The notes beneath the pieces are model-generated. The model did no database searches. It was not told the origin of the DNA and saw nothing but the letters and a program-made list of their open reading frames with translations. From assembly GCA_965649765.1 (NCBI GenBank), contig OZ287749.1, forward strand, positions 41,788,001 to 41,852,000: a DNA stretch of 64,000 bases. Direction: 5' to 3'. Shown here in pieces: positions 11,255 to 37,725 of the stretch. The translations under genes were made by a program, and so were the position numbers. This DNA is from Bispira polyomma. Its lineage: Eukaryota. The first letter of the stretch is position 1, and every line of letters starts with the position of its first letter.

Positions 11255-11460
11255 TTCCACCCGCGAGGAAACAAACCAAACTCAACTGGCCATGTTATAA
11301 TGATTCTGTATACACACATATATATAAACCCGCCAAAACGGCCGCCTGGAAATGATAAACAGAGCGCATAGGAGCCACCGCTCGAAATTTTCTCCACAAC
11401 TATACCGCAAACCGATGACTCAGAATTGTGGTGACTCACCGCCCGGGAACCTTCACTCTC
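11255..11460 (+). promoter_or_regulatory. Candidate promoter/enhancer of the bZIP gene
   Basis: Local CpG-rich patch in CpG-poor DNA about 0.8 kb upstream of the first coding exon. TATATAAA at 11321, E2F-like CCCGCCAAA just after it, TGACTCA at 11416-11422 and 11432-11438, kB-like GGGAACCTTC near 11445. Confidence 0.55.
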
Positions 11461-12239: not shown

Positions 12240-13595
12240 ATGGGTGGTTACCCTAAATGGAACAAAACAAAGAGTTTGGACCTTAATGCTAACTGTTTAG
12301 GTTATGAGAATAGACAGAGTGGGATTGGATTGGCTTCAGGCTGGATCGAGGAGACCATGCAGAGACCAGATGACAGTGGCAAGGCAACCATTTTAAGGTA
12401 TCAACGACCACCAGACCATGGTCTGCAACCTATCATGTATAGAACAGATGGCAATGGTAAGGCAACAATGTCAAGGGATCAACAACCACCAGACCATGGT
12501 CTGCAACCCATCATGTATAGAACAGATGGCAATGGTAAGGCAACAATGTCAAGGGATCAACATCCACCAGACCATGGTCTGCAATCTACCATGTACAGAA
12601 CAGATGGCTGTGGTAAGACCACTATGTCAAGGGTTCAGCAACCTTCAGACCATGGTCTACAACTCGCCATGTGTGGAACATATGGCAGTGGTGAGACTAC
12701 TACAGCAAGGTTTCAGCAACCACCAGGGCATAGCCATCCACCCGAATTTGGGCAAAGTTTGCAACCCTCATCAGCCAACACTCATAGTTTTGTCAGTGAG
12801 TTACTCGGACCATTCAGCCATGACCAGCAGACATTTAGTGCTGGTTGTCATAGTGGCGGTGAAAGACAAGAGGGTGATACAGTGCACTGGGGTCAAAGTT
12901 TATTGCCAAGCCTACCAAGCCGACCAGACCAGCAGCAGTTTTCTAACAAAAGTACAGCTGGTACACTAGATCGAGGACAGTTTACTAGTGAGGCATTTGA
13001 ACGCATGGATGACGTCACTACAGCTATTGGCGGGTTTTTGATTGACCAACCTAAGCATTCTCGAACTGGTGGGGATAGAGGGTTATTTTCTTATGGTTCC
13101 TTACCTCCTTGCAGTTATGGCAATATGGGCGTGAGTGGGGACTCAATGGCCTATCCTGAGAATGTTACCAAACAGCTGACTGAGATCAATAACAGCAGTG
13201 ATTATCTACCTAGTCATATTGATCCCCACTTTGACAAGAAAACTTCACCTGCTTTTACTCAGTCACCGGGGAATTCCCAACATTATTACTCAGAGCAGAC
13301 GACTTTTTCGACGACCACAAATGATATGGCAGTTTTAGCTCAAAGAAGTAGTTTGACGGGTTTTGAGCAGAGGTATGAACGCCAGGACATTGTGGATACC
13401 AGTAATATGTGGCAGCCTGCAAAGGGTACTCACTTGAGTACCAGTTGTCCACCAAAAGCAGCTGGAAAAGTGACCGGAAGTGAGGATACACAGAAAATGC
13501 TGAGCCAAGGGGGGAGTGGCCTAACTGCCGAGCCTGTGACTGACAGCAGTAATTGTGAAGACCTTAGTGATATAGAACAGTTGTATAATATATTG
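12240..13595 (+). CDS. First coding exon of the bZIP gene (452 aa; low-complexity N-terminus with 26-aa repeats)
   Basis: Lies in the long ORF 12201-13625, with higher GC than its flanks. Acceptor tttctgtctggttttAG ends at 12235, followed by agccATGG (good Kozak-like context, ATG at 12240). Donor TTG|gtaagc at 13596, phase 0. Confidence 0.75.
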
Positions 13596-15786
13596 GTAAG
13601 CTTTCTTATGTCATTTAATGTATAATTGGTACATTTATAATATATTAATGCCCCAAGTGTGTTTAAGAGAATTTTATGATGTTAATATTTTTGGTATGGA
13701 AACTTATGTTCATTAGTTAGACTTCTTAACTTTTAAAATGTTATATTTTTCAGTAACCCTCTCAAACCTATTAAAAATAAAATTAGCTGTCCAAAAATAT
13801 CACGTCTAAGTTTTAATTGATGTTTGTATTGCAATAAAAAGCATTCTTGGTGATGTCTATTGATCCATTTGGTTGTGATATTCATAACACAAGGCAAGTG
13901 GAACTTCCCCAAACATGTGTATAGATAAGAACCCAGCATGTAATGATATGTGTTCAATTATTTGTATCATTTCCTTTTTGTTATAAGTTATTAGTATATA
14001 TAGTGTTATACATTTACAGACCAAACAAAACCCATGTAAAATATCTGTGTCAGTAGGCAAAAAGTCTGTTTGTATGATGATTAGAAGTCTGTTACTAGGA
14101 ATGAGTCACCTTCCCCTCTCTCAAGTATGAGGGGGAAATCTCCTACTGTACACGATATACACTTATTATACCACTATAATATATACACAATCCACCTGGA
14201 AATGCCTTGGTGAACCACTTTCTATAATACACACCACCACCGCCACTAACCACCAAAGTGGGTGTGTCATCTACAGCTAATAGGTCTCTTTGTGTTACTT
14301 ATGGTTGCCATACTACTCCGTCAGAGTTTACTATTGACACCTCTCGTGTCTTGGATATGAGTATAGGCTAGTGTCCGAGTGAGCGTTCAGTTATCAAGGT
14401 TTTGTTAAGAGAGAATGAGTAACTATACTGAAAAAAAAAAATCGATTTTTAAAAGGATGACACTAAAATGGATTATTACTAGCTCTACTGCAGTGCGCCA
14501 AAATTTTAGAAACAATAAAAAATATATTGTCTATACATACACGATCAGATCTGAGCGGACAACATACGTGGCATTTGTAATAAAACCTTCTTAAAATAAA
14601 ACTTTCTCCAAATTTTGTCAGATCATATTGGGGGTGGGGGGGGTGGGGGGGGTGGGGGTGGGGGGGGGGGCTTTTTGTACATGTAGATCACCATACTATC
14701 ATGAAATTCATGTATTTAATACTTATGATGTAGTTTAAAAGATCCATCCAAGCTAGTCTGATAGTATCCTACACTTTTATTCGGATTGTATTACATTGGA
14801 GCCTGTTAACAGGGCCCTAGACACTGACCCTAGCCTACTGAATTTATAGCCAGTTATACATATATGTCTTCAATCTAATCCCTTTTTATAGGTTTTTTTA
14901 ATTACATGAATAAATAATTAGTATACATTGTTTGAAATAAGAGGCCAAAGTTCCACAGAGGAGTAATTGGATAACAAGTAAAACAATACTGATATTGTGT
15001 GTCGATTTTGTAATCTAATTTTGCTAAATACAGAAGTTAAATTTACAACAACTCTTTATGAATCAGTTCAAATCAATACATATATGTGTGGAGTGTTATA
15101 TCTTATAAATCAATCAAGTAGATATCTGTTTAACTGTGTCAATATTTGGTATAAAATGTAATTAATTCTAGCCCTTGAAATAATATATAATGGAATGTGA
15201 TACGACTATAACAGGCCCTACACTCTTTTGTGTAGCAATAATTATCATTATTACAGATGAAATATATGAAAACACCCACCAATCATATGCATGGAAAATA
15301 AACAAGTAAGGATCTCCTCCCCAATTTGAAGAGACTATGCCCTTATATATAGTTGGACTTTCAACATATTGAATATTAATCTATTGTTTTTCTGGTGGCA
15401 AGCCAACTACCTGGTATATAAATAAATGAACAGAAAAATTAAGTATGTAAGATTTGACAAAAAAAATAGACAAAAGTACAAACATTGGGTTTGGAGAGTG
15501 TACATTATTATACTTGAATGTAACACCTATAAACTCAATCACCTGTATTAACAAGAAATCAATGTTATACCTCTTTACTGCTGTCCATATTTTTTTAGTC
15601 TAGAATACCTTGTATTCTAGCTGTTTATAGCCTACTGTTCTTACATTTTAACCTCTGTTTTAATGAGGCATATTATTAATTGTATTCAGCTATCTTTAAC
15701 AATTAGGGATAGTACTGTTGTCAATCTATCTGTATAGGTTATATAGAGCGAGTAAGCATGGTAAAAAATGAGATATCCACATTGGT

Positions 15787-15824
<38 letters not shown>

Positions 15825-18800
15825 CATGTCAATATGTTGTATAAACCAGGGGCAGTATTCACACACAAAGAGGCTAAGTCTAGACATTGTCCTAAATCTA
15901 ACACAAAAGTAAACTAGATATAAGACAAAGTTTGGTTAGCTCTTTAGTGGATACACCACCCCTGGTTATTAGGAGCTGTATGATTTCAGACGATCTGCAT
16001 GGCTTTTTATTATTTGTGCTCTTCACAAGATTTCCAGACATTTAGCAGTCAATAATAATGGATATTTCAGGTTCTTTGAACTACAGCCTTATTTAGTGTT
16101 TTTTTTCAAGAACTATCATACCCTGCTTTATTTCCCTTTCTTTGTTGGGAGAATATACTTATTAGTGGTGCTTACTTCCAATGTTTATTGTAGATAATTG
16201 TTGAATTTTTTTATTGTTATAATGTAATCCGGTTGCAAAAGGTATGCCCTTAACGACTTAACGAAACTTGTGTAGGGTCATTGGAGAGGGCCAATGTGAA
16301 TCAGTGGTTATAAGCATCTGCTTAATGGTTCTGTCTCACTCAGACGTGCGTCTGTGACCCTTCGTAGTGGGAGTTTATGCCACGGATCTAGTGTTATTTG
16401 ACAAACTTATCGCCCATCTCCCCCTTTATCACCCAATAATACATCACTAAACGCAACAAAAGTTCAGTAATGGCTACTAATTATAAGTAATGCGAAACGA
16501 TCAACGATCCAACACAACCTGCTACTGATGAGAAATGCTTCAAAACTGAAGACGTTTAACCCCCCCCCCCCCCTTCTCCCCACAAAACCCCCCACCAGCT
16601 GTCTCTCACTAACATTTCAAAACTTTTGGGACGGTGCTACTAAAGGTCACAGATATAAACAAAGACTTCCGAAGCGTTCCTTATGTAGACAAACTTGAAA
16701 CAACGTTGAAACTACTGTCACTGATCGCTACGAATATGTCCGTGCTGCATTCGTGATGGGCATTCGTGTAAATGAGACCTAGGTATCAGTACAGAAAACC
16801 TCTCAACCCTAAGGACAGTCGGATCAAATCCCACTGCTTCCTTCATATGGAAAATATTGTTAAGTACTTGCTATAGGTCGGTGGTTTGCAGTACAATTAG
16901 TACTGGTTTCCTCCGCCAAAAAAATATGACAATCGCAATATGACCAAAGATGTTGTATAATACCTATTTCACATCCCCATGGAATATGCTGCTCTGTCTG
17001 TCCACTAAGTTAATATGCATTACCCACTCCATGTACTGAGAAGACTATAATTACATGGATAGTCTTATTTTATCAGGCTCAGCCTGATAATGTTTTTATT
17101 CTGACAATGCCGTCGCCATCTTAGAAAATATATGCAAGGCCTTCATGGATTGGTTGGAAACAATCGATCCAGCCAAACTGAGGGGTTTCAGATGTATTGT
17201 TATCAGGTGTGGCCTGGGGCCTGAGTATATAGGTTGATATCAACGTTAGTGTATTTCACACTGTGTGCCTGTGTCTTTTTTAAAAGACAATCCTTGTTTT
17301 TTATATGACTACTATGTTTGGCTAGCCTACTGAATAAGGAAGACATTTTGTGGACAAATAAAGTTATGCTGTCCTTCATTGGGCCTCATTCAACATTAAT
17401 GACATCAGACTAACAAATTAGTTTGATCTATATCCCTAGTATGATTAATATAAGCATACATTACTAAAGTACACAGAGGAAGGGGTTTTGAATCATTTGC
17501 TTAAGTCTATAGCTTTGTGGTTTATATTGACGTCACAGCTGGTTGGTATGACGTCAATCCTTTATTATACCAAACATCAACATTATACATTATATGCTTT
17601 TCAAAGTAAAATCTATTTTCCTTTCCACCTACACTATCTGTCCTCAAGCACTGTTTTATATACTAGAGATGTATCTGATATCAATAAGTAGTCTCTCTTA
17701 AAGGCTCATTTTTGTTAACATTCTTCCCTTAATTTAACATTTGATAAGCATAACTATATACAATGATCTTCCTATATATAAGTGTTTAGCTGCTCTGTAA
17801 AAGGTAGTAGGAATAAAAGAAGGGCCCCCTATGTTCTCCAAGGGGATGGTTCCACATTCAAGTACGATCAGCAAAATAGGCCCGTTTTTGAGATCGGGGC
17901 GGTCATGGCGAAAAAATCAATAATGTAATATTTTGGGTGGGAAAATGAAAGTAACCCAGGTTAGGATCGAACTTATTAGCGATAGGATCTGACATATCAC
18001 CCTAGGATCTACCGTATCAGCGATAGGATTGACCGTATCGGCAATAGGATCTGAATGATCTATACGGCATGTCACTCATGATAGTACTTGTAATAATCAA
18101 GGTCGGGATTGCTATGGCAAAATAACTGAAAAAAAAAGTTTTTATATTCTTCCACACCATCCCGTTCACCCTGTTCGCCTCGTTTTCCCCCCCCCGACCT
18201 ATACGTTTTAACACGTCAGTCTTAGGACAGGTTTAGAGTGAGATAAGACACACAGACAGAAAGTATTGACAAAAAGGTCAAACTTATCAATCCGATTTTG
18301 AGGTCCGGGGAGGTAAGTCAGGGTACTTTTAGAAAACATCGAACATGTTGAATATCCTTCCCGACAACCGCGACCACCCCATTTTTGCCCCCGGACCTCA
18401 AAATTAGCAAGGTCATGGATCAAACAGCATAGTGGAACCACCATGTTAAACATACATTGAGATACAGTTTTTAGTATTAAGGATACACTAGAGCCTTCTG
18501 TAAGGCTAATCAATATGTTAACTGTATTTAGTTATCATTATGGTATTCCAGACAAACTGGGTGTTTCTTGTGTTTACTGTAATTATGTTACCATAAGAAG
18601 TATGAAGTATAACTAATAAGACTATGTTATCTTATGTGGGATTCCAGGATATACCATGTGTCTTAAATATCAGACACTAAACAGGTGGGGGTGCTGCTTT
18701 AAAGGAAGGTGGCAATGATTAACTAAAAATTTGTTCTGCATTTTGATACAGGGTAAATGTAAATGCGTAGGTTATGAGAGTTTTTGCACAGAGCCACACA

Positions 18801-21800
18801 TGTAAACCAAACAAATCCCACAATTCATGGCTAATGCTATGGTTGTCAAACTAAAGAACCGTGTACTGAACTACCTGGAAATTAGTAGAAATTCAGTTTA
18901 TTTGTCATAATCACTTTCACTAATTATTAGTCACTAAGGATAGACTTTTCTCATGAACACTTTCTTCAAACCTTTAATCTATCATCATTTATGATGTCTA
19001 AGCTGACTTTACAAGTCACACCCCACCCTGGGGTTTTTTCACTTGTCAACAAAATTGTTCACTCTCAGCATATTAGGCATGCTACCACAAACACCCATTA
19101 GCTGCCAGGTACCCAGTTTTTTTACATTTTACAATATCATGCATGCAAAGTTACCCAGACTTTTTGGTTCACCGTCTTCCCTTTTGTCATCCAGACATAC
19201 AATACTTGGGAGTTGTATGGCAAATTGACAGTAAGAGAAGCCTATAGCCAAATTCAGTTATATTTATGAAAGTCCAAACTTTATTGACTATTCAGTCATG
19301 CACTATTCAGCTATTCACAAACATATAATTAAAAAAGTAACTATATCTGTAAAAAAGGATCATAATGCTTAATCATGTTATGTAACATAGATAAAAGGTA
19401 GATCTACAGTGTTTTAAGAAGAAAAAACACACACACTGGCATATCCAGGCATGGAATTATAACCCATGCCATAGTGCTGATATGTCCACTTACATTACTG
19501 TCGAATAAAAATAGAATAACTATTGAGACATTTCAACATCCAGTGAGTGTAATTCGAAACCCATGACCTTTACACAAGAAGTACTAATTATATTCAAGTA
19601 TAGTAACATGGTTAGTGTTAATTTTTACAGTTTATGGTTGGATACATTGTCTATGGTTATGCAATTTGATACCTAAATGTGGGTAGATGATGTTTTGAAC
19701 TGGTTGGCTTGATAAGGTCGGAGTTATCTAACTAAAATAAGGCAAGCTTGATGTAGCTTTCGTTGGTGTGTTGCAGGACACTATATAATAATTATAATAA
19801 ATATCATTTTATATAGCGCAGTTATGAATATCACTGTTATCTAATGCGCTTTGATATTATTACCCCAGCCTGATTCTTCCACTTGTCAACCAATTGTTCA
19901 ATCTCTACTCTCTTAGGAAGCATACTGGCTGTGCTGCCACATTCGGATCATCAAAGACTAACACCCATTAGCGGTCAGGTACCCATTTATCCACCTGGAC
20001 AGAGAGGGATAACTTTGTGTATAGTACCATGTCCAACGGTTTATCACCAGACCAGCGAGGAGGAGTTAATCTAGAGCCTCAGATCTTTCAGATCCAAAGT
20101 CCATTACTCTAAGCCTACGCTTCCTTTCAGCATGTTTTTATCGGCCAACGTCGGCCGATGTCGGCCGATTTTTTCCCCTGTTATACAATACTACCAAGTG
20201 CTTCCTTTCAGCAGATTTGCATCAGATCCGATCAGACGTCGGCCGACGTCAGTTGGGCCATCAGATTTTATCTGTCAGGGAGCGAAAAAATCGGGAGGAC
20301 TGACCGATTTTGACGCAAAAATGTTTACAAATACACTGTCTTAAGTATATTTTTCATCTGATATATACCCAATATTCGTCGTATATTGACTTGGAAAATG
20401 GCATGAGAAAGCTTATTTTACTGTGATTACTGTGCTTCTTTTTTCACCAAAATTCGTTGAGAAACGGCTTAGATATTTAACTTTAAATAGGGGTACCCCA
20501 TTTACCCTTACTCTTCTACTGTGAATTATACGTCACAGGAACGTCATCATGACGCCACTTTTGCAGCTACGTCACAACGCACACATACAGAAGTAAAAAT
20601 GGGTACTAATGTATAAACTTAAATTTCTGAGCCGTTTTTCAACGAATTTTGATGAAAAAAGAGACACAGTAATCACAATAAAATAAGCTTTCTCATGCCA
20701 TTTTCAAAGTCAACATCCGACGAATATTGAGTGTACATCTGATGAAAGGAAGCACAACATCGGCTGACGTCGGATCGGATCGGACACCTTTAAATCGGCC
20801 AACGTCGGAATGTGCTGAAAGGAAGCGTAGGCTAACTGCCAGGTGACAGAGACATATATAGGAGCTATCTGACAATTGTGTGCACATAAAGTAGACTCTC
20901 TGTGCAACTAAAACTAGTATAAGTTGAATTCATTAGTGAGCGTTTCCATGCAGGCAACTTTCTGGGGCGACCAGCCGACGTATAACAGGCAATTTTCAAT
21001 TTTTATGTTTCTATACAATTACTTGAGAAAAATAGATACCTGTATTTAAACCTGAATATCTTAGCCATTTCTAAACCGATTTTGATGCAAAAAAAGCACA
21101 ATATACACGATAAAATAAGCTTCCTCACCATATTTTTATGAAATTTATACCTTCAGTAATTTTTGAGCTATTACAAAAAAATCGGCAATGTTTACAAGGC
21201 GACGGCAATGCCAGGCGATTTCTTTCGCTCCTACTAGCGAAAAAATCGCCTGGCATTGCCTGTCGCCTATCAGCGTTGTTCACATGGAAACACTTGGTTT
21301 TAAATCAATGAAACTGATAGAATCGCCGTCGGCCGTCGCCTGATCGCCTCAGAAAGTTGCCCGCATGGAAACGTTCACTTATAACTAGAACCAATTTCCT
21401 GGCCCCAACATTTAAAATGTTAGCTATCAATTCGGTCTAAGTAGCAGTTAGCCATAACTACAATCAATTAGCAGTTTGAATACCAAATAAAGCTAGATAC
21501 ATTTGAATAGAAGTTAACTATTAGTAGAACGACCAAATCACTTGTATATTGGTCTTCTGTATATCTTAAATATCTCAGGTGTTAAAAACTGTGTTGATTG
21601 TGGTGTTATAACATCAGTGTCATGTTAGTGTGCATTACAGTGAACATAATAGCATCCTTGAACTGAGGTGAACTAGTAGGTCTTAGATACCAATACATGT
21701 ATACACAGTGTATGTTGGAAGTTAAAGAAAAGGTTCTCTGTGTTCACAGTCTAGACAAGCACATACCTTTTTATAACACTTGCAAGTGTCTCTCTGATAA

Positions 21801-24800
21801 AGTCAGACTTTTTGTTATTACATAAACACATCCTGATCTTACATATGTGTGACCACCTGTGTATTTGTTAAAACTACTAATGTCGTTATTATATAAACTT
21901 TTAGGCTCCCACTATAGCGAGTTAGAAAAACGATGCTTGTGCATAGATGGAGATGAGTCGGTCGCAGAAACATCCCCCAATGTAAGCGGTGTAAAAATTT
22001 GAACCCACAGTGATTTCCATCTGAAATCCTGGGTCAGTGCAGACCTCCATGGGAAAATTTGCGGAAATGTAGAATAAACTTAAATTTCCGCAATGAACTT
22101 TGCACAGCAAGGGCATTGCTATACTTTCCTCCATACGTGATCTAAAAAGCCGCAATTAGAAACATGATTTGATTGGCGATGAACGCACATGTTCACTTTG
22201 GCAGAAAAGTGCTGAGTAAGCAGTGAAAATCGCAAGGCCGACGTGAAAGTGGAAGCTGCCCTTAAAAAAGTAAATATGAGATTTTGTGTTGAATGTCACC
22301 CAAAATCGAACTACTTCATGTATACTGCTAATGGGTTTGTAATGAATCTGCAGTCACATGATAACTTCAAAAGACGTCATAATTTATCCTCAACAAAGAC
22401 AGAATATTTTGAAAACCTATTTTATATTAATATCATACAACACTGTGTCTTGACCAACATCACCTGGTTTGATGTATGATACTCTAAATAGCAATAGTCA
22501 TGTTGAAGTCTCTCAGACTAGGTCTACCCATCAGAACGGTGGTTAGCCCTAAATTACCAATTGTACATTCTTGGTACATTCTTAGACACACTTGGTTAAA
22601 ACTGTATCACAGATCTTAGAATAACTTTAAGTATTCCTGAGGTTAGATCTGATTTAGCAATTCACTTGACAATCCCATACCTTTGATTCCTCCACGAATG
22701 CCCACAGATTGGCAAACTTGCAAGTCGTGGCTCAAGTCTTACTGATACTTAGTACTTCCTTGTATGTGGGACGAGGGGCTAAAAGTGATTGATGTCAATA
22801 GATCATCATAATAACATGATTCTTACACTGTTGTGCTTTGCTTTATCCATGTGACCAATGAGTCAAAACGACTTCAGATTTTAGAAACTACATGTGGTTG
22901 AAATCAGATACTACACTCTAGATCTAGAAAATATTCTTTTTAAAATTGTTTCATTTTCATTCTACTAAATTTAGAGAAAACTGATATATGTGATATGATC
23001 CTGCACAGGAATATTCAGAATAGTGGAAGCCCAAGGAGGAGGTATGATTCATTTATGTCCTTGACACTGGTTCGATGTTTTTCTATTTTATGTGCTAATA
23101 CATGAACTATAGCATCCACATGGCTGTATATTAATACACTCTAATTTTACACATCATTTCTGAGGCAGCTCATATGTGTTTTTTTCTGTCTGGGAAACCC
23201 ATTTCCTGTTCTGAAATATTGCTTTTGTTGTTTAAACTTTCTGAAGTGGGTCGTAGTAGGCTGGTAGTTTATAATTGTTATGTAATTATGTCTAGGTCTC
23301 ACATAGAAGAGGGTGCTGTGAGTATGATGGGGAATGTTGGAGCATGGTGGAGGATTTAGATTCTGCATCATTCTCCATAAAAATAACGGTTTTGTTTTTA
23401 TGTCGGTGACTATCCAATACCAATACATTACCATCTTTGAGTACCAAAAGTACGCTTCAATGAATGACGAATTTGTTACGGAGCGATAGGCAATAGATGG
23501 AGATTAGGGAAGAATGGTGAAGAACCGTAAGGGATTGACTACCAACAGAATTTGACATTGCAATCAAGATTCATCAACGTGGGACCTAAGCATTAGAGCA
23601 TTTATTTCACTATCAGTTGCCTTCACTTCTGATGACAGTTGGTCTCTTAATCTATCAGGGCAAGAAGTGGGTCGTCTTATTTTTAGACTGTACATACACA
23701 CAACAAATCATGTACGTGCTATTGCCATGTTTTCTTTCCAATCCATAATTTTGTAATTGCAGAAGAACAAGCTAGATTTATTAAGTACCAGATGAGTGAA
23801 TAATAGAGTAATTGTCAACGAAGTTTGTAGAAACGACCAATAGTGTGTAAGTTCACGTTTTCTCTAGGACTTGATTTTAACTATTTTAACCTAATAAGTT
23901 TGTGGGGCAGTGAATCTTACTTCCTACTAGTGAAAGGTTAACTTCTGTATTAACCTTTTGACCAAATCTGGCCATTTGTGACAATTAATCCTAGTCAATT
24001 TCTTCAAGATTGAAAAATAGTAAAATTTTCTTGCAGCTAAAGTTTTAACTTATACAGTATTATTCCTGGGTTGTTGTTATGCCACAAGAAATGTAAACAC
24101 ATAAAACATATTAAGAATATGATCTGCATCTGTTAAACAAACATTAGGGAAGTGTATGAATCATTTAGAACTAATAGCCACACCAGCCCATTATTACTGA
24201 TTAACATAAGTAAACAATCACTCCTGTAATGTGATATCTAATTGAACAAGTGTCCAACACAACTAAATATGTTTGACATGACGGCCAATGCTGATCAATA
24301 ACACAAACTAGAGGCGTATGGTAAAGTAAAATCAATATACACCTATATTACAGTTCCAGTTCATTAGAAGACATAGCTCTATTGATCGCCTCTAATATTT
24401 ACTGTTTTTAAAAAGGTTAGTTTAATTTGTATAACTATTCTTAGGGCTTGTTACTACACACAGTTGGTCACACTTTAGCCTTAATGAACACACAACAAGG
24501 TTAAACTAGACCCACATTCAAGTACGACTGAGGAGCCTTTACCAAATAACGGGGTTTCCCTTTGTTCCCAATAACGAAACTTTGTCTATGCTATTTTTAT
24601 ATACTAGAGTATACACCGCCGCTAAATCACAGGGACGGTAACCGCGAGACTTGCGTTTTACCACTTGCACTGCTTTGACTGTTTTACAATGCACCAAAAA
24701 CTAATGGAATGATTGAAGGTAAATACGTTTGGCTGATGACATTTTTGTTGACATTGTTGTAAATATATTACCACGTCAAAATAGAATTTAGACAGACAAG

Positions 24801-27800: not shown

Positions 27801-30800
27801 CAAATATGTTAAATGTGAGCGACTTTAAACCCTAATGACCGACGATTAACCAACTCACTGAATTTATTAATCTGTGATGTACATAACCTGTTTTTACTTT
27901 GTGTTTCATATACTCAACAAAACCAGATTCTGAAACCTTCATCTCTAATAGCATATACCTATGTCTTCAACCTCTACTATTTGTATGTACTTTCACTTTC
28001 AGATTTCCACTACTTTACCAAAACCAGAATGTAAATACATCTTACCACCAACATACCCACCCATCCCTATATTTTACCAAACCAGTTGGTGAATACATCT
28101 GACTACCAGCATACACTACCTATCCTTATATCTTCAACCTAAATGTTTTTATGTACTTGTACTTTTAGATGTCTCCAGAGCATTCATTCGATGACAGGGA
28201 GGACGACACTGGCGGAGACGAAGAAACGCGACTACACCGCAGGCGGGAAAAGAACAGAGTGGCAGCACAGAAATGTCGTCAAAAGAAGAGGGATGCATCA
28301 AATAATCTAGTCAAAGTAAGTTAAACTAAGTTGTTTCAAATTTGTTGCAAGGTGCTATATATAAGCTGAGTCTAATTCCACATGGTATTTCTTTGGTCCA
28401 GTTGGCATCGTTTTCACTTCTGCATTGTGCCACAATCAATAGTCAGGCATCCTCTGTGGTGCACATCCAAGTCAGCAATCAAAAGAATAGTGTGATACGG
28501 GATAAGGTTCGTGATCAGTCGTGACCAGGAGATGAAAGTTAAGGCAGAAAAGCGACTTGATACAAATGTGTTTTGTGCTTTTTCCTAAAGCCTGTAATCT
28601 TTGTCCCATTGAAGACTAGTAGGGAGATTATTCCACTCAGCAGGTGCTGCAGCTTTGAATGATTTTAACCAGTCATGATCAGTTTCTTAGGTAAAAAAAC
28701 AGAGATGAAAAGATGATTCCATCTGGTAAGATTGCTAAGATGATTAGTAGGCTGGCCACTGCACATTGACAGTGTTAAAATGGGGACATCTAGCTTAAAT
28801 TTATACCTCCTTCAACAGTCTTGTCCCAAATGTGTGTCAAACATAGAGCTACTATTGCCATATCAAAGCAAATTCATCCAAGTTGGTATATCTAAAAAAA
28901 TGGGCACACTAGTTTTTTTTGTTGGCAAATTCCTTGGTTAGTGGCCATATGGACTACTGCATATGGACTAATTTATTATAATTACAATTATTACAGCTTC
29001 TTTAATCTCTCGCATTGCAAAAAGTCAATGCCCAGTTTATACAGTTTGGCAGACCAAATAAGTACCACTGTCAAGGGTGTATGAATTCCCCATTGACATA
29101 CATCGAATTCAGTTCAGTTAATGATGCAAAATGTATGACTTCAAATTCTGTTATACACAGAGAGAGGTGATAGAATTTCTTATTTTAATTCCATCCATTG
29201 GAAAGTAGTTTTGACATTGCCATTTATAAACCTGAAACTTCACTTTCCATGAGCCACCTCTTTACGCAGTTACTGAGTAAACAGCTGGCAGAGATGTACT
29301 TCTTGTATTACAGTGTTGACTGTTGATATTATTTGTCTTAGTAACATGACTAATAATGTTTGTACTGAAACCACAAGTGTATGTTGTGGTTTTTGTTTGC
29401 GGGTACTCCAATTCAAAACGCAAACTTATAAAGCTCCTTGTAAGAGTACATTTTTAACCCACCAACCAAAAGCCAAGTTGTACGTGTACTCTAACATGTC
29501 AGTAGATAGATAGATGGGGAGATAGACAGATTTTTTTATTGTACTCTCACCTGGTAAATATAAACACATATATACAATTTATAAAATGCTTGACCCAGGC
29601 AGCCACTTGTGGCTTATGAGAGAGTTTGCGTGTAAAAATAGGTTCAATGTACAAATACAGCGTTAATATAATATCATATATATATAGAATTACATGTACA
29701 ATATACTAGATCCGACTTCTAAGCATCTTTAGGCCGTCAGGCCTTTGTCACAGGCCATCAGACCCAAGATCACATTTCTAGCACATTATTACTATTACTA
29801 TATGAAAGGTCAATGAAATTTGACTCAACACTCAAATTACAGAATAGTAGGGAAAAGTTTTTGGTATCATAATGTAGCATTAAATGTATGCTATCATATA
29901 TATAAATTACAATATACTAGATCCGACTTTTTTGTCGCGGACTGTCAGAGTCAAGAATATATTTCTAGTATATCATTACTATATGAAAGGACATATTGCC
30001 ACATATCTTACACATACAAAGATAACTGAGCCAAGATCATAATAAATTACCAGTATCATTAAACACTGGCCACTGGCGTCTCTATGAGTAATACAATTTT
30101 CCTAGTTCAACTTTATGTAATTTACTTTGATATATATTTCACACCAAGTTATATATTTATGGTTTTCTTTTAACAGAAACTTTACCAGCTTGCAGTGAAT
30201 AGTGAACCTTGATCAAGCTTGACATTTCTATTCTCTCCATTGTCGTGTGATACCAAATCTTTTTGCCATTAATTCCCAAACTGTGGAATGATCTTCGGTG
30301 ATGACATACAAAAGGCCCCAACACTCAATAGTTCAGAAAACAGACTTAAAACCTACTAGTTTGGTAAAGCCTTCTCACCATACTATACTGAGGATATCGG
30401 GGTTATGAACTTTTTTCCATCCCACATATATTCAATATCTAGTTTATGTTATAGATTGTGTGCATTAAAATCCCTAGTACAGAGATTAAGCAGATGGTTA
30501 CCTGATTGATTGATTAATACTTGAGATAAGAAGGATGCTCATGATTTGCAGATATAATTTTGAATTGACTGTTAAAATGAAGATAGTTCTATTCCAGGCT
30601 TTGGTGATAATATGTATGATTTACAGCCTTATTTTTTACTAAGTTCACTTTGAACACTAATTTATTATTCTATTAACATCTGTGTTCAACTGTCATTACA
30701 GATAATATTTAGTGATTCATAACTGAATTACTAGACGTGAACTTTGACCTCGTATAAAGACCATTTGGCGTTAGGAGCTAATTTTCTGTCACCAACATTG

Positions 30801-33800
30801 AATGATTTTTATTTATTTTATTCTTCACTAATTGATTTAAACATGAAGTCAATTCTTTCAGATGGTGTTTCATGGATTACAATTTGTGTACTGCATAGCT
30901 GACAGCTTTATTGTTGGCTGAGGGCTGCTTTTTATTCTAATATGAACATTTTTAGTCCATCAATATCACAATTTATATTAATTGGTAATTGCTACAATTG
31001 GACTTTAACCTAGTTTGTAAGAGCATCAGCGTTTGGAGCTCTAGTTTTCTGGTGTGTGGCTAATATTTGAAAGGTTTTGTTTATATACAAATCTCACACT
31101 CCAGCCACCTGTGTCTTTGTACTGTTAACCACACACACCTTTTTTCTACCAACACCTTGTCATATTCCTTTTGTGCAGTTTGTCTAATAAATCTGTATTT
31201 TGGCCCAGTTCTGGTTCCATTTCATTCTTTCAAATAAAAATGCAATACTTCCATTTAATCAAAAAAGGGGATATTTTATGTGTGAGTCTGCATTTAAAGC
31301 AAAAGCTTGTCTGGGTGATTTTGTTTTTCTGAAAATGAATATAATTTTAAAACCTATTTATAAAGTGGATTATACTCTACCTATATCATTGAAATGTCTA
31401 GTTTAATTCTGCTTATAACACACAGTTTATAAGCACCCTTTCTATACTGAATTACATCTTATTTTAATGTATCTCTGCATTTATAGCATGATGTTTCTTC
31501 TGAAACTCATAAAATCTAAGACACATTTTGTAAACTATGATGGCAGATTTTTTGAATGCCACATTCCAGATCTAATTTTGTTCACTTTCTCTTTGCATTT
31601 TAGTTCAGTTTTAATTTATTGTCTCATCTTGTTTTAGAGATGTGTACGTCAGAGGGAGTTAGGTGTATTATCTAACCTCTGTAACAAGTTGGTTATCAAA
31701 CACTGTATGGGTATTGGAATACAAGATCAGTTAGTTGTTACACATAGAGTAAGGAATCTAAAATAATTCGCCACCTAGAAAATGTTGTGTTTTTGGTAGA
31801 ATTGTGGTTAATATTTTGCTAAAATTTAGATTTTTGTTCACATTTTGCCTTATTTCTCTAAATTCAAGTTATGATTTGCCAGTTTTTTTTTATTAATTTG
31901 GCTTCAATTTTAGCGTTGACATTTTGTATTATTTTGTGTGATGAGGTGGCCGGTTTTAAAATGAAAGGCATAATTAACACATAATCTCCAACAAGAATCC
32001 TATACACGTTTGTATGCATTGTTTAAAAATATGATATTTGAAGGTTGCATTGCCCAGTTATAATCTGGGAGGATAAAAGATTGAATGGACATTTTGAGAG
32101 TGACTGAGGATTCTAATGAGTGATCCTAGTAAGTAAGTATCCGGTTAATCTCTGACAAACTCTGTGGGCCTAATGGTGTATAAGCATTAGCTTTATATCA
32201 TTTAGTTCTCTTATCTCTAAGGACAGCTGATTTGAATCTAACATGTGCAAAGGGAAGTTTGAGACAAAGTTTGCTTGATACATGGTACTTGGCGAAGGTC
32301 AGTTCTTCCTAGTGTACGAAGTACTGGGTTACTCTATTTATTAATGTGGCCATCACAATGTGACCAAACATTGTTGAACTTACTTATTCTAAAAACCCAA
32401 ATAAATTTAAATTCAAACCACATTCTCTTGAAGATAGAAATTTGCTGTTCTTGTGTTTTTACCCTACCTATTTTATTTTTCCATAAAAAACCCACATAAC
32501 ATTTTTTGCCATCCACAGTAGAACATTCTAACATTTGGAATGGGTGTATAATAAGTTCTAATTATTGTAAATAGATCTAAGAGCTAGAAACTTACTTAAG
32601 TCTGCGTTTCCATGTCAGCAATAGATGACGGCAATCAGGCGACGGACGACGGCTATCAGGCGACGGACGACGGCAATTGGCAATTTAATGTTTTCACTAC
32701 CAGGAAGGAAAAAATTAACATCCATTGTCCGTCGCCTATCGGGCGACTCACATGGAAAAATATACTTATAAATGAATGAAACTGAAAAGTTGCTGTCGGC
32801 TGATCACCTCTGAAAAAATGCCTGCATGGAAACATCTACTTACCCTTCCATACAAACCAGATCTCAGAGACTAAACTGAAATGGCAGACTTTGACCACAA
32901 TCCATGCAGTATGTTGCTCGTCAGTGCAAAGACTTGGGCCATTTGCTCTTGTTATATAATCATTATATATAGACTTCAATTCTGTTTTGTGGGGTTTACA
33001 TGTGGTTGCTATTATCACTTGTAATTTACTTCATTTTTTATCTCCACAAAATATAGGTTGGAGTTGAACTGTCTGTGTGTGTGGCTTTCTTTTCTGTGGG
33101 GAACATCAAGAATAGAAATCCAATCCAACATAATATACACTTAGTATTAAATAAATACTTTTGAGCTATACTATTAGGACATTTAGGAACCCATAAATAA
33201 GCTGATATTACTACATTATGTGTGTGTCTCATGTAAGCCTATATAAACCCAGGTGACTAATAAGGGTGGAGATTTGACTCTTAACAAGATTCATCCCCCT
33301 CCACACTAAGTATATCAAGGGGGTGAAGCTTGTTATTAATGCTAATTTATAAGCCCTTCCCAAACCTCGGGCGGTCTGCTGGTGGGATGTGTATATCTGT
33401 GTGTGTAGGTTATAATTAGGCTACACCGAGTTACACCCATGCAGTGACTGATTCCTCCCACCCAAACAGTGGTGGGTGGTACATGTATACATCTTTACCA
33501 CCCTGTGAGCTATAACTATACTGTACTATGCACTACTGTGTTGCTAAGCCAAACTTTCACAGCCAAACCACACAAGAAGAAAACACAAGGCTGGTATATA
33601 ATATAACTAAACCCATTACAGTCTGTGTTGACTTAGTATTTCTTTTTTCTGTTGACGTTTTTGCCATGCTCATTTCCTTTCCACAAAAAAAGTCAGTTGT
33701 TTGCATCCAGTCACACCTTTTACTGTTGACAGGACACCACCCCTTATTTTTGGCGATGTGATATAGGATGGATGTGAACTTTGCAAATACCTGAAGAAAA

Positions 33801-36800
33801 ACACTCGATGGGTTTTAACTTTTCAAGAAGACTCTCTCAAATTAAACCAGCCTATGGGGTGATAAGTTACAGCTGTCCAAAGAGTCAAATTGTTGACAAC
33901 CCCCCCTCTCCCTGCCTCCTTTTCCCTCCCCTATCTCTGTTCAGTCTATAGTAGGCGTGGATATAGCTTGTGTTTTAAGTGTCTGTATTTCATCTTTTCT
34001 CTTTAGTCCACCATTTATTTAACTCCCCCATTCTTTTTCTACCAAATATCGCCCTTGGGATAAGAAGCTAGCTGTCTGATTGGTTAGCCTTCAGTGGAAA
34101 ACTCGGCAGTTCTCGCCTGTTGTCGACCAATCAAATCAGAGATGGTCGTGAATTCAGGCGTTATTCCTCCCTCTTACACAACGTTTTATACAAGCAGCAC
34201 TAGTTTCTTCCTTAATGTTTATTTTGATTTTTAAATTTTTTGGACCAGCTTTATACAAAAACATTATTTATTGTATTCTCCCTCAAGGGCGATTGTGTTA
34301 TTTATAAATAGAGAGAATCTATATAAAAAAAACCTCCTACACTAAAACCCTGACTGCCTATTTTAACTCGTCGCCAACCCAAAAAACCACCTTGCACCTT
34401 TATAAATTAGCAATGCCAACACAAAGAATATTGGAATACAAAGCCTTATTATTTATTATTACTATCTCATATACAACAAGGTACTCTTTCTGAGATTATT
34501 TGGCACGGGTTTCGAGGGGGAGAGATGAAAAGGACTGGGGTGAGGGGGGCACTACCCACGGGGTGGGGGATGGGGGAGAAGGTTATTTGTTGTTGACTAG
34601 TTGCATAATATATACGCAGAAATACATTATATGCAGAAAAACTAATATCTAGAGATAGTATATTACAGCAAAATTTATGACAAGCACACGAAAAACTTCT
34701 CAGAGGGAGAAAAAAGCTTGCTGAAAAAGTGTTGCGCAATTTAGGGTCTTTGTTTGATGCCTGGCGTGTGCCAAATTGGGAAGTCTCCAACAAAGGATGG
34801 CTTTTTTATTATATTACATATACATGTGCACCCGACGGTTTTTTTTTAATAATCTGTCACAAGTAGAAATAATAAGAGGCTTAAATTACCTTATTGATAA
34901 ACAACATGTGGGGGGGGGGGGACCTTTCACGGAAAGAAAACAAAGGAATATATACAAAAATGGGAAGACAGTTCAGTTCTTTTTGTAGAGAGTTCTAATA
35001 ATTGTTTTTATTCTTTCTTTTTTATTTTTGCTCTCCTTCTATTTTAGAGGGGAACAAAATAAAAAAAACCAACCCAAATTGGTAGCGAGGTGTATTCATG
35101 TACATATTGAAATTCTGACCACATGAAAGTGAGGAAATGTCAATCCTTGTATTAATTGTAAAAAGCCATAATAAATAACAATAAGAAGCAAGTAGATTTG
35201 TTACACACATGGGTTGGATATGTCTGAAGTCTAATCGGTTGTACAACCCTTCCAGTATGTATAAGTTCAAATAGATCAGGGAGCAAACTAAAACTCTACG
35301 GCTCTCTACAAAATGGTTGTTAAGGTTCACCTATTGTTTTTTTTTTACAGAGTTATGTTATTACAGTATATACTACATATAACTAAATCCATGTAATGTA
35401 AACCTAAAGCAGTTTTTGAAATGGCCATCGCAAATGCATCAACAAAATGGCATTCTACTTTGTTTTCAGATCCAATAAACTTCTAAGATAACCCTAACTT
35501 AAAGTATAAGTCACATACAGAAGTCTTCAAACAAGGACTTTTAGGAAAATAATAATGAAACTGTCTGTAACTTTTGAATAGACAGTGTAGTTCGACCCTT
35601 TCCAGCCATTAAAGCCATTTGTTATGTTTGATGTCAAAAGCAGATATCCCCACGTGTCTTCTTTGAACTTCCTACGGTAATCAATTAGAAATTCATTTCA
35701 ATTGATCACGTGTTAAATGGGAAGTGATTGGACAATACGAATACAAACACTCCAGATTTGCTTTGTGTAATTAGATCACAGTTAAATTTTCATATCCAAG
35801 AAAACGAAAAAAAAATACTGATCAGTCATCAATTGGAAACGGTAAAACAATTTAATGGAAAAGTACCCATTGCACCTGGTATATGTGAATGGAGTAAGTG
35901 GGGAGAAAGGACCCAATATGTTACACCGTATATAGAGCTGTCATCTGTCACATAGACATAACATAGTGCTGGTTATAGGTTGTAAACAAGTTTGATGTAC
36001 AGATTACTGCTACTGTGCATAGTAGTCCATTAAGTCATAACTACTAAATACTGTAGTAAAAGTTTCTAGCAACAGTGGATTAGCGAGTGCTAACATATTG
36101 ATCTCAGTTTAGTAAAGAGATGCAAACATATATTAGCCTATGTTCAGATGTTTTGTTAACTTGTTGCCACAAAGTTCTACTTGTACTAATAATGCACATA
36201 ATTCTTCAAAATATTCAGCCATATCTAGTCACTAAAATGAATTCCTGCCTTGCATGTCTTGCAAAACATATGTTTACATTGGGCTAGAAATCATTTTTTC
36301 TATCTCATTAAAAATAGTTTATTCATACAGACCAGACATGAAGTTTTGAACCAATTAACTATAGATTTTACTCTGGCATGGACTTTTTATTTCTGTTTCC
36401 AGGAATACCAGGATCTGGAGTCATCCAACACCCAACTCAGATTCGAGATCCGCCAGTATCAGAAACAGAAACAAGATCTGGAGAAGCTGCTTTCCAGCCA
36501 CTTAACAGACTGTACCAAGCACTCCGGATCAAGTGCCTCTTCATCAACCACATCCATCCCATCTACCTGTTCCATGACAACATGTCCAAACCACACGGTC
36601 AGTGTCCCTCCGCAGGCAGATCTAGGGCTTCCGTCACTTCAAGTCCCAGGATCTAGGAATTCTTCTTCTGTCACACACAGAGACCATAGAAGCATCCAGA
36701 GCATCCAGGCAGATACTGAAGCTGATGAAAGTGGTGGATTAAGGTCATCAACAAAAAGAGGTTCTTCTGAAATAGAAGTAAAGCAGACGGAGGAGGGGAA

Positions 36801-37725
36801 GAAATTCAGATTGCCTCAGCCAGCAGCACAAGGTAGTAGTATGAGTAGTAGTATGGCCATCCCCACACCCATCTGGTCACAGAAGTCTGAGAGTAGTAGA
36901 CTAACAAGCGAACCACCAACCCCATGGAAAGACTCTGGCCAGCCTTTTGGTCACAAGGGTGTCCACCAAGGGAGAAAACCTCAATTAGCAATAGGAAAAG
37001 GGGGTACTGCTCTAGGTACTGGCAAAGTACCAAGTTTTGGTCTTGGTTCAGACAGTAGAGGCTGGTCTGTGGATGAGAATGTCCAAGTTGCTACACAGGG
37101 AAGATTTGACCACTCATCTGTATACAAGACCACCTCTTCTAGTCAGGACCTACCCAGACAAGCAACTGCTACTACTGCTACAAAAGACAGTTTTCAGCAA
37201 ACACCCATTTCTCAGTTATCAACAAGCAGCATTGTCAGACTCTCAAACCCCCCTAGTCAGATATCACCAAGTTCAAGTTCCTCTGCCAGCGGATCTAGAA
37301 GGAGTGATCACATGACACAAAGGCAACAAGCAGAAAGCAACATTTCAGTCAATCAGAGGCCGTCAAATGTAGCAAATCAAGTGCAGCTAAATCGCTCTGG
37401 CTCCCCACTGGTACTACAGCCACCTCACTGTATTCAGTCTATGGACTTCTCTGCCTTTTCAAGCACACCATCTGGACCATCAGGTAAACCTTCTCCTACT
37501 GCTGCCTATATAAACAGACCAGCTAGACCATCAGATAAACATACTCTTACAACATCTACCTTACCTTTAACCTCTGCCACAGTCTCTGCATCATCCCCTA
37601 GTTCACTGCCTCCTCTCCATAGTGAGCCACATCATTCACCTGTGAACAGAGGAGCACCAAGAAGGTCAAAGTCAAGGACGGTTAAGGCCATAGATTTTAA
37701 TTCTATGTTTAATATCACAGATTGA
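12240..37725 (+). CDS. Spliced gene model join(12240..13595,28169..28315,36403..37725): ~941-aa ATF3/JDP2/BATF/Fos-family bZIP transcription factor
   Basis: Three exons with canonical GT-AG sites, both junctions phase 0 (452+49+440 aa). The spliced bZIP reads RLHRRREKNRVAAQKCRQKKRDASNNLVK|EYQDLESSNTQLRFEIRQYQKQKQDLEKLLSSHLTDC. It has the N-x7-R basic motif, a heptad zipper ending in H-x3-C, and an intron after L-x-x at the zipper start, as in Fos/ATF3/BATF genes. The join of the first exon rests on phase and splice sites only. Confidence 0.8.
12358..12735 (+). repeat. Coding tandem repeat, 78-nt / 26-aa unit (xPPDHGLQPIMYRTDGNGKATMSRDQ), about 4 full and 2 partial copies
   Basis: ccagaccatggtctgcaa recurs at 12411, 12489 and 12567, and in diverged form near 12645. 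Units decay towards both ends. Confidence 0.95.
14630..14670 (+). repeat. G-run tract with G-quadruplex potential, intron 1
   Basis: Five G-runs separated by single T. Confidence 0.7.
17528..17556. promoter_or_regulatory. Paired CRE palindromes in intron 1
   Basis: TGACGTCA at 17528-17535 and 17549-17556, 21 bp apart. Confidence 0.45.
17846..18441. mobile_element. Degenerate TIR element with internal ~20-bp GATAGGATC repeats
   Basis: Ends TGGTTCCAC / GTGGAACCA. About 5 copies of gcgataggatctgacc at 17960-18060. Internal inverted tttgaggtccgggg / ccccggacctcaaa. Confidence 0.55.
19785..20845 (-). mobile_element. tRNA-derived CORE-like SINE interrupted by MITE family A
   Basis: Minus strand carries the cctctct...ccaggtg.ataaatgggtacc core and a (TTA)-rich tail near 19785-19815. 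The tRNA-like head is split by the 20113-20832 insertion. Confidence 0.7.
20113..20832. mobile_element. PIF/Harbinger-type MITE, family A copy 1
   Basis: TIR GCCTACGCTTCCTTTCAGCA...TGCTGAAAGGAAGCGTAGGC with TAA on both sides. Internal ~150-bp inverted arms at 20352-20503 and 20597-20747. No ORF. Confidence 0.9.
20936..21378. mobile_element. PIF/Harbinger-type MITE, family B
   Basis: TIR GTGAGCGTTTCCATGCAGGCAACTTTCTG / CAGAAAGTTGCCCGCATGGAAACGTTCAC, TTA TSD, internal GGCGA/TCGCC subterminal repeats. Confidence 0.88.
26040..26414. mobile_element. MITE whose right end is quadruplicated
   Basis: Left GGGGCGAATATAC and right GTATATT(T/C)GCCCC. Subterminal inverted similarity tccgtcatccgga / tcggattacgga. 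A 20-bp unit occurs 4 times at 26337-26414. Confidence 0.8.
26602..26750 (+). repeat. ~48-bp unit, 3 copies
   Basis: tttttacct.t...tgtccctttataaagtttgcttaa repeated. This explains the repetitive spurious ORF 26606-26788. Confidence 0.8.
27040..27089 (-). mobile_element. Solo terminal fragment of family C MITE
   Basis: Reverse complement gtttatgtactcatgtaagcgacctccgatatcagacgtcagatttgcg matches the left end of 55139. Confidence 0.7.
27195..27396 (+). repeat. ~100-bp tandem duplication
   Basis: tttttcacattttaca..gcttaacttactttt...tagtgtaaa...cgt.tggtct.gtgtt occurs twice. Confidence 0.8.
27648..27860 (+). mobile_element. tRNA-derived SINE (V-SINE-like mollusc type)
   Basis: A-box TGGTGATGTAGTGG, B-box GATTCGAATC, body ending aatatgttaaatgtgagcgactttaaacc. 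Relatives at about 16800-16958, 32165-32325, 50705-50940, 51950-51995(-) and 59465-59700(-). Confidence 0.65.
28169..28315 (+). CDS. bZIP basic-region exon (MSPEHSFDDREDDTGGDEETRLHRRREKNRVAAQKCRQKKRDASNNLVK)
   Basis: Acceptor tacttgtacttttAG at 28168 and donor AAA|gtaagt at 28316. 147 nt, phase 0-0. RRREKNRVAAQKCR is a typical AP-1/ATF basic region, and the exon starts with xSPE like Fos exon 3. Not in the ORF track (under 60 aa). Confidence 0.93.
32600..32839. mobile_element. Shorter, diverged family B MITE
   Basis: Ends GTCTGCGTTTCCATG / CATGGAAACATCTAC. The right part aligns by eye to about 21255-21378. Flanks are TAA and TTA (imperfect TSD). Confidence 0.7.
36403..37725 (+). CDS. Terminal coding exon: leucine zipper plus ~400-aa S/T/P/Q-rich C-terminal tail
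   Basis: Within ORF 36250-37725. Acceptor tttttatttctgtttccAG at 36402. Zipper EYQDLESSNTQLRFEIRQYQKQKQDLEKLLSSHLTDC follows in frame. Stop TGA at 37723-37725. Confidence 0.9.
   Translation, partial: EYQDLESSNTQLRFEIRQYQKQKQDLEKLLSSHLTDCTKHSGSSASSSTTSIPSTCSMTTCPNHTVSVPPQADLGLPSLQVPGSRNSSSVTHRDHRSIQSIQADTEADESGGLRSSTKRGSSEIEVKQTEEGKKFRLPQPAAQGSSMSSSMAIPTPIWSQKSESSRLTSEPPTPWKDSGQPFGHKGVHQGRKPQLAIGKGGTALGTGKVPSFGLGSDSRGWSVDENVQVATQGRFDHSSVYKTTSSSQDLPRQATATTATKDSFQQTPISQLSTSSIVRLSNPPSQISPSSSSSASGSRRSDHMTQRQQAESNISVNQRPSNVANQVQLNRSGSPLVLQPPHCIQSMDFSAFSSTPSGPSGKPSPTAAYINRPARPSDKHTLTTSTLPLTSATVSASSPSSLPPLHSEPHHSPVNRGAPRRSKSRTVKAIDFNSMFNITD

Follow-up and report, generated by a model that had tools for sequence, protein, structure and literature searches.

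A predicted 941-residue AP-1-class bZIP protein within a seven-gene Fos/ATF3-class array of Bispira polyomma

What kind of protein results when a basic leucine zipper (bZIP) domain is set between two very long arms? The question is raised by a 64-kb stretch of Bispira polyomma DNA (the window; contig OZ287749.1, G000:C2:41,788,001-41,852,000), in which a gene flagged at positions 12240..37725 on the forward strand, here called gene C, is predicted to encode 941 amino acids (aa). Gene C is best read as an unusually large member of the familiar AP-1 family, not as a new kind of protein, and as one of the two long proteins that a gene array encodes. We give a probability of roughly 0.6 to the reading that it is an ATF3-derived, lineage-specific Jun partner, an AP-1-class bZIP with expanded low-complexity arms.

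Gene C comprises three coding exons. Exon 1 (12240..13595, +) encodes a low-complexity N-terminal arm of 452 aa; exon 2 (28169..28315, +) encodes 49 aa that include an acidic spacer, the basic DNA-binding region NRVAAQKCR and the first zipper leucine; and exon 3 (36403..37725, +) contains 440 codons and the stop. The introns measure 14,573 bp (GTAAGC..TTTTAG) and 8,087 bp (GTAAGT..TTCCAG), both in phase 0, and the exons join in frame to give 941 aa with a single terminal stop. An earlier note on this DNA, made from the sequence alone, had proposed three phase-0 exons forming one open reading frame (ORF) with a central bZIP, about 470 aa before it and about 400 aa after it; the DNA bears this out, with flanks of 468 and 403 aa. 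The real frames are far longer than the longest ORFs of 500 base shuffles (at most 206 codons for exon 1 and 195 for exon 3). The ATG at 12240 lies in a strong context (GCCATGG), with an acceptor-like TTTTAG just 5' of it, and a phase-0 donor follows exon 1 at 13596. Reads from three genomic DNA runs cover the introns evenly, and the 15 of 156 joints shown contain no splice joint, which for DNA reads has no bearing on expression. The three-exon, 941-aa model stands at the DNA level, with both junctions as predictions, and gene C is very likely a real gene of unusual length.

The central domain is of the AP-1 class. The basic region reads N-x2-A-A-x2-(C/S)-R and keeps register with a leucine zipper (36403..36513, +) that carries Y, N, I, K and L at its a positions and L, L, L, Y, L and H at its d positions, one of which is therefore Tyr in place of Leu, and that terminates in HLTDC (HxxxC). 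The basic and zipper motifs quoted in the earlier note are present, and its N-I-K-L series of a residues extends to Y-N-I-K-L. Exon 2 matches the Pfam families bZIP_1, bZIP_Maf and bZIP_2 (E 7e-6 to 4e-5), while a Pfam scan of exons 1 and 3 alone gave no family match. A phase-0 intron that follows the first zipper Leu and precedes heptad 1 is shared with the Fos and ATF3-like genes of the array, and vertebrate genes of the class also have an intron there. The boundaries of exon 2 are those of the 32-36-aa basic exons of six paralogues, with an extra insert of 13 aa. Searches of PDB sequences with gene C returned weak bZIP matches only, the best being BACH1 (E 0.017) and FosB (0.13); a CNC/BACH identity was rejected, as zipper and array context disagree with it.

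These paralogues lie next to gene C. Seven Fos/ATF3-class bZIP genes, of which gene C is the third, are found in tandem over ~380 kb (G000:C2:41,664,438-42,041,796), an array that extends beyond the 64 kb on which the earlier note was based. A genome-wide bZIP search of the 1.04-Gb assembly gave 42 matches (30 translated), with five Fos/ATF3-type basic exons within 380 kb around the window, and a six-frame scan of 660 kb raised the basic exons to seven, each with a matching zipper exon. The order is A (Fos, +), B (ATF3-like, +), C (+), G (-), D (-), E (-) and F (+). All seven genes consist of an N-exon, a basic exon and a zipper exon with GT-AG phase-0 introns (13/13, plus gene D intron 1), the ends of the N-exons having been picked by us at phase-0 donors. 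Between A and F, the best 140 short ORFs of the region include only array-gene-like or transposon-like ones. Three basic-exon and zipper queries of the genome found no Fos-type gene outside the array and one Jun gene (L003), both counts being lower bounds.

The C-terminal arm is conserved. A phmmer search with exon 3 against 1.84 billion proteins gave two matches, P0004 and P0005, both ENA singletons. P0004 aligns with exon 3 residues 109-440 (338 columns, 33% identity, E 4.5e-17), and its alignment with the tail scores 321, against a maximum of 104 in 300 shuffles. Within this Ser/Pro/Thr-rich tail (36727..37725, +), P0004 keeps a KR-x12-GKKxRLP block (36754-36816, +) and the same C-terminal KAIDFxxxFNIxD, up to the stop codon (37684-37725, +). 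P0005 matches the gene C zipper, and its best match in this genome is gene C exon 3. On this evidence the tail is real protein sequence, conserved in another organism. Word-index protein searches with exon 3 (771-2200-aa proteins only) and with exon 2 gave zero matches, which is weak evidence, and JGI metagenome scans with the tail and with exon 1 were blank.

Tail conservation bears on whether gene C is a relaxed, near-redundant duplicate, at most a passive Jun sink, whose arms represent neutral growth. Low-complexity arms with recent tandem repeats would suit such a duplicate, as would the Tyr at a d position and a last exon that varies in length (440 aa in gene C, 210 aa in P0005). We regard it as improbable, however, because ~1.3 kb of intact frame persists at each end of the gene, the motif blocks and exact C-terminus of the tail are kept at 33% identity, and all five base-contacting residues of the basic region are retained. 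In the 3' region, AU-rich elements are not enriched (12 versus a shuffle mean of 8.6; 79/500 shuffles).

The N-terminal arm contains an in-frame tandem repeat of 78 bp (26 aa; 12354..12692, +; 4.3 copies). Of the differences between copies, 35/75 fall at codon position 3 in the gene frame (the pairs are not independent), and synonymous/non-synonymous counts are 20/28 in this frame, compared with 14/46 and 9/42 in the others. Every copy has a phase-1 GT[AG]AG donor-like site (12457, 12535, 12613 and 12691; three GGTAAG and one GGTGAG), and splicing there would put the reading frame out ahead of the bZIP. Exon 1 has eight GT[AG]AG sites other than its own donor, seven of them out of phase. A single-sequence AlphaFold model of exon 1 reached a mean predicted local distance difference test (pLDDT) of 35, with no confident fold. 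Across the exon 1/2 join runs an acidic stretch (net charge about -14, with 5 W/F/Y/L in 41 aa, by hand count), and 39-aa windows inside exon 1 go no lower than -4; this predicted segment would be compatible with an acidic activation domain. Within intron 1, positions 16840-21911 hold very high-copy repeats, with a summed contig depth of tens of thousands versus ~20 for unique DNA.

A shorter product would arise if the main translation start were the ATG of exon 2, giving 489 aa with the bZIP at the N terminus and leaving exon 1 skipped, cut internally or part of another transcript. Exon 2 does open AG|ATG with the ATG in frame, intron 1 is long, exon 1 has its seven out-of-phase donor-like sites, and no exon 1 homologue was detected in the same genome or in JGI contigs. 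The basic exon of gene F also opens with ATG, however, and that of gene B with LSPE, so that the MSPE of gene C is explained as a homologous exon start. Moreover, every paralogue has a coding phase-0 N-exon, exon 1 is a frame of 452 codons whose ATG lies in a strong context, which ends at a phase-0 donor and whose repeats differ preferentially at third positions, and no other gene to which exon 1 could belong was seen in the window. The + strand of intron 1 has no ORF longer than 89 aa that could rival exon 1. A main product starting at exon 2 is judged unlikely.

The relationships of gene C within the class were approached through its motifs. The human rows used for comparison are listed under gi numbers, three of which we take to be BATF3, BATF and JDP2. 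By eye, over 60 columns, gene C shares 26 identities with BATF3, 26 with ATF3, 25 with JDP2, 24 with BATF and 23 with c-Fos (PMC4736632, Table S1). The mixture of BATF and ATF3 features described in the earlier note is therefore a real resemblance, although not a special or diagnostic one, since mollusc ATF3-type proteins share it. The basic region of Patella ATF3 (XP_050407074.1; P0012), RRREKNRVAAQKCR, is identical to that of gene C, and the ATF3-like protein of Gigantopelta (XP_041351157.1; P0032) likewise shares the basic region, with NRVAAQKCRQKK, and has the EYQ zipper start of gene C, together with the ATF3 pre-bZIP motif. BATF-like words are not diagnostic for this reason. The named best matches to the gene C bZIP are mostly from molluscs and annelids, pointing to a probable lophotrochozoan host, with the highest identity to Patella ATF3 (31/64, a margin over Fos of one residue), followed among the ATF3 proteins compared by Gigantopelta (29/64) and Lamellibrachia (KAI0236107.1; 25/64). 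These lophotrochozoan proteins also share the KCR Cys, the a4 Lys and the terminal His, but they are 181-231 aa long with a pre-bZIP KEEL motif, whereas gene C has 941 aa, a 403-aa tail and no such motif.

Gene A, the Fos of the array, has the exon plan and intron positions of gene C, and Fos proteins (gene A, and mollusc and fish Fos) share with gene C a predicted Jun partner and an HxxxC zipper end. Unlike them, gene C has Asn at a2 (Lys/Arg in Fos) and lacks both RRERNKLAAAKCRQRR and a SPTLISL-type C-terminus; it resembles ATF3 and Fos in its KCR Cys, its a4 Lys and its HxxxC. Two phylogenies on 70 columns, with no vertebrate BATF, ATF3 or JDP2 rows, the 65 stored matches containing no vertebrate BATF, agree with the placement outside Fos. 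Tree 1 was built from 33 of the 65 matches, omitting near-duplicates, most fungal rows and intron read-throughs, together with all seven genes of the array and two outgroups; in it gene C falls outside Fos (98/92) as the sister of gene D (98/89). Tree 2, built from 15 of the 65 matches and P0005, leaves gene C in an open fork; grouping with Fos is rejected by the approximately unbiased test (p-AU 0.021), while neither a non-Fos clade (p-AU 0.060) nor a C-D-E-G clade (p-AU 0.058) is rejected. Of the membership in an ATF3/BATF clade claimed in the earlier note, what survives is a non-Fos member of the Fos/ATF3/BATF class, the trees having yielded no closer placement.

Gene order brings BATF back into consideration. 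Genes A, B and C, a Fos, an ATF3-like gene and gene C on the same (+) strand, among which no further gene is apparent, mirror the human order FOS-JDP2-BATF, a phrase for which the full-text literature gave no paper. Because of this likeness, a smaller chance is reserved for gene C as the positional orthologue of vertebrate BATF, with the Fos-ATF3-BATF trio already in the bilaterian ancestor and the arms added later. Vertebrate BATF and BATF3 resemble gene C in RRREKNRVAAQ, EYxxLE, Y-N-I at a1-a3 and an ATF3-type neighbour; BATF3 ties with ATF3 in the by-eye count, and BATF, like gene C, lacks the ATF3 pre-bZIP motif. According to the accessible part of PMC6479329, ATF3-BATF3 synteny is kept across vertebrates, and grass carp BATF3 has three coding exons as gene C does, in a protein of 120 aa that gene C exceeds ~8-fold. 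Several residues disagree with this orthology: gene C has Cys at N+7 where the human BATF and BATF3 rows have Ser, its residues at N+19, 20, 27 and 41 are V-K..S..K where BATF has H-L..K..E, so that the hinge His is absent, and it has Lys at a4. In BATF, the hinge His and outer zipper residues contact IRF4/8. As set out above, mollusc ATF3-type proteins have the BATF-like motifs as well. Position next to an ATF3-type gene in a Fos-linked cluster agrees with BATF but does not discriminate, since the array holds four further, more divergent paralogues and local duplication is rife in it. A 2026 preprint (10.64898/2026.09.25.754218), in the part available, found no invertebrate Batf. Orthology with BATF thus appears doubtful. 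Equally doubtful is the broader proposal that the array corresponds, in a protostome, to the FOS-JDP2-BATF and ATF3-BATF3 clusters of vertebrates and that gene C is the first invertebrate BATF orthologue, with regulatory arms of its own of 470 and 400 residues; if true, it would mean that BATF predates IRF4/8-dependent adaptive immunity.

Under the preferred ATF3-derived reading, gene C would act with Jun. Its zipper paired with that of Jun (L003) gives three attractive e-g pairs, none repulsive, together with an Asn-Asn a-pair, whereas the homodimer has no attractive and two repulsive e-g pairs plus a Lys-Lys a-pair, and pairings with the six paralogues have 0-1 attractive and 1-3 repulsive pairs. 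The predicted pairing favours dimerisation with Jun rather than with itself. Because two or three attractive pairs with Jun are counted for all but one of the seven array proteins, the array may offer a set of alternative Jun partners with differing arms. The residues that contact bases in this family are N, A, A, C and R, with TPA or cAMP response elements (TRE/CRE) as the site; all five are kept in gene C, and binding to TRE/CRE is therefore predicted. Drosophila Atf3 binds a CRE-like core, according to the part of PMC5849342 available. Upstream of gene C, a candidate promoter/5' region (11319..11438, +) contains a TATA-like box at 11319 and TGACTCA at 11416 and 11432. Over the whole window, TGASTCA is not above chance (13 versus a mean of 9.15), and two or more AP-1 sites in 1 kb upstream were seen in 16/2000 shuffles, the region having been chosen after the sites were seen. 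These sites, 0.8-0.9 kb 5' of the gene, hint weakly at AP-1 feedback. In the arms, the KR-x12-GKKxRLP block may serve as a nuclear localisation signal, and cofactors may be recruited by the acidic junction segment and by the terminal aromatic-acidic motif.

Taken as a mechanism, gene C would have arisen by tandem ATF3 duplication within the array and would act as a Jun-heterodimer partner at AP-1/CRE sites, its long, probably disordered arms tuning activation or repression. The arms would have grown as the first and last coding exons lengthened, in part through internal repeats, without capture of known domains. Several points weigh against this account. Both junctions are predictions, and the join of exon 1 crosses a 14.6-kb intron, when in five paralogues every intron measures 0.46-2.7 kb. 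The search for exon 1 homologues that came back empty covered the same genome and JGI contigs, not two large protein libraries. Molluscan Fos is nearly as close to gene C as ATF3 (30/64). A profile search found no pre-bZIP ATF3 motif (LTPxxKEELxxxI) in gene C, whereas genes B and F have it, although the profile was built from B, F, P0032 and P0051 and the B and F matches are its own seeds; vertebrate ATF3 has the motif. The trees are mostly unresolved, with the C-D sister pair of tree 1 not recovered in tree 2, and counting charge pairs is a rough guide that does not measure binding.

Size alone is a less striking property than it was first taken to be. The earlier note treated the length of gene C as anomalous against human proteins, but this yardstick is vertebrate only, and the array itself ranges from five shorter paralogues (351-442 aa) to gene D (~1038 aa). 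Its proposal of a lineage-specific ATF3/BATF member with two large regions holds as to a non-Fos class member with low-complexity arms, and is weakened as to the vertebrate-based size claim. Among the 65 matches the longest is a Fos-type protein of 638 aa, and an ATF3-type protein of 497 aa has a long tail; gene C exceeds all of them. Drosophila Atf3 is near 690 aa. Gene D (G000:C2:41,974,428-41,997,294, -) resembles gene C in its long introns and arms, an aromatic a1 residue and 28/63 bZIP identities, and differs in its predicted ~1038 aa and 778-aa tail, with no detectable similarity between the arms. Its length is less sure, because the end of its N-exon was chosen and its first exon is 18.6 kb away. 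The last exon of gene D (41,974,428-41,976,872, minus strand) has 815 codons with a 14-aa tandem repeat, in a protein predicted to be longer than that of gene C.

The literature gives this array some context. In the accessible parts of PMC4736632, the animal bZIP set is described as stable with a FOS-ATF3 pair in bilaterians, human BATF rows are filed under FOS, and several Lottia bZIPs are unclassified; by eye, three of these resemble Fos/ATF3. The gi numbers of sea-urchin ATF3 and FOS in Table S1 of that paper are near-consecutive (390348410 and 390348414), a hint of adjacency. A scallop BATF-like transcript is reported in the part of PMC4657243 available. Searches of the full-text literature, which leave subscription journals mostly outside, turned up neither an invertebrate AP-1 gene array nor a protein of this length. 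With seven Fos/ATF3-class genes against one Jun found, and two of the proteins near 1000 aa, the array suggests that AP-1 control has broadened in this lineage through the exchange of Jun partners. It is also a testable lead on the origin of BATF, whereas the long gene C protein alone is a modest curiosity.

The remaining members of the array are shorter. Gene A, with its ATG at 41,664,438 (+), is modelled as a Fos of 442 aa. Some 1.4-1.65 kb upstream of this ATG are an AP-1 site and a CArG box that lies within 15 bp of a full CRE; CArG, CRE and AP-1 sites form the classic immediate-early Fos promoter layout. Gene B, between A and C (+), is ATF3-like with at least 439 aa, its start not having been found. 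Gene G follows gene C (-; 376 aa), gene E follows D (-; 351 aa) and gene F is last (+; 383 aa). Gene G (L073:8895-8999, minus strand) has KNYR, with Tyr replacing the basic-region Cys/Ser, and two non-Leu d positions, substitutions that may alter which DNA site it binds or which partner it dimerises with. Upstream of the array lie what we take, by eye and with no family scan, to be a cytoplasmic dynein heavy chain gene and a KLF-type gene.

Other bZIP loci were noted elsewhere in the genome. Two inverted, near-identical CREB bZIP exons lie 29 kb apart (L004 and L005; G000:C12:25.80-25.83 Mb) and either arose by recent duplication or are duplicated only in the assembly. A 552-codon frame (L012/L021; G000:C3:77,468,554-77,469,798) holds two PAR/NFIL3-like bZIP domains ~360 aa apart, and three C/EBP-type bZIP genes (L010, L017 and L023; G000:C4:32.98-33.01 Mb) lie within 25 kb.

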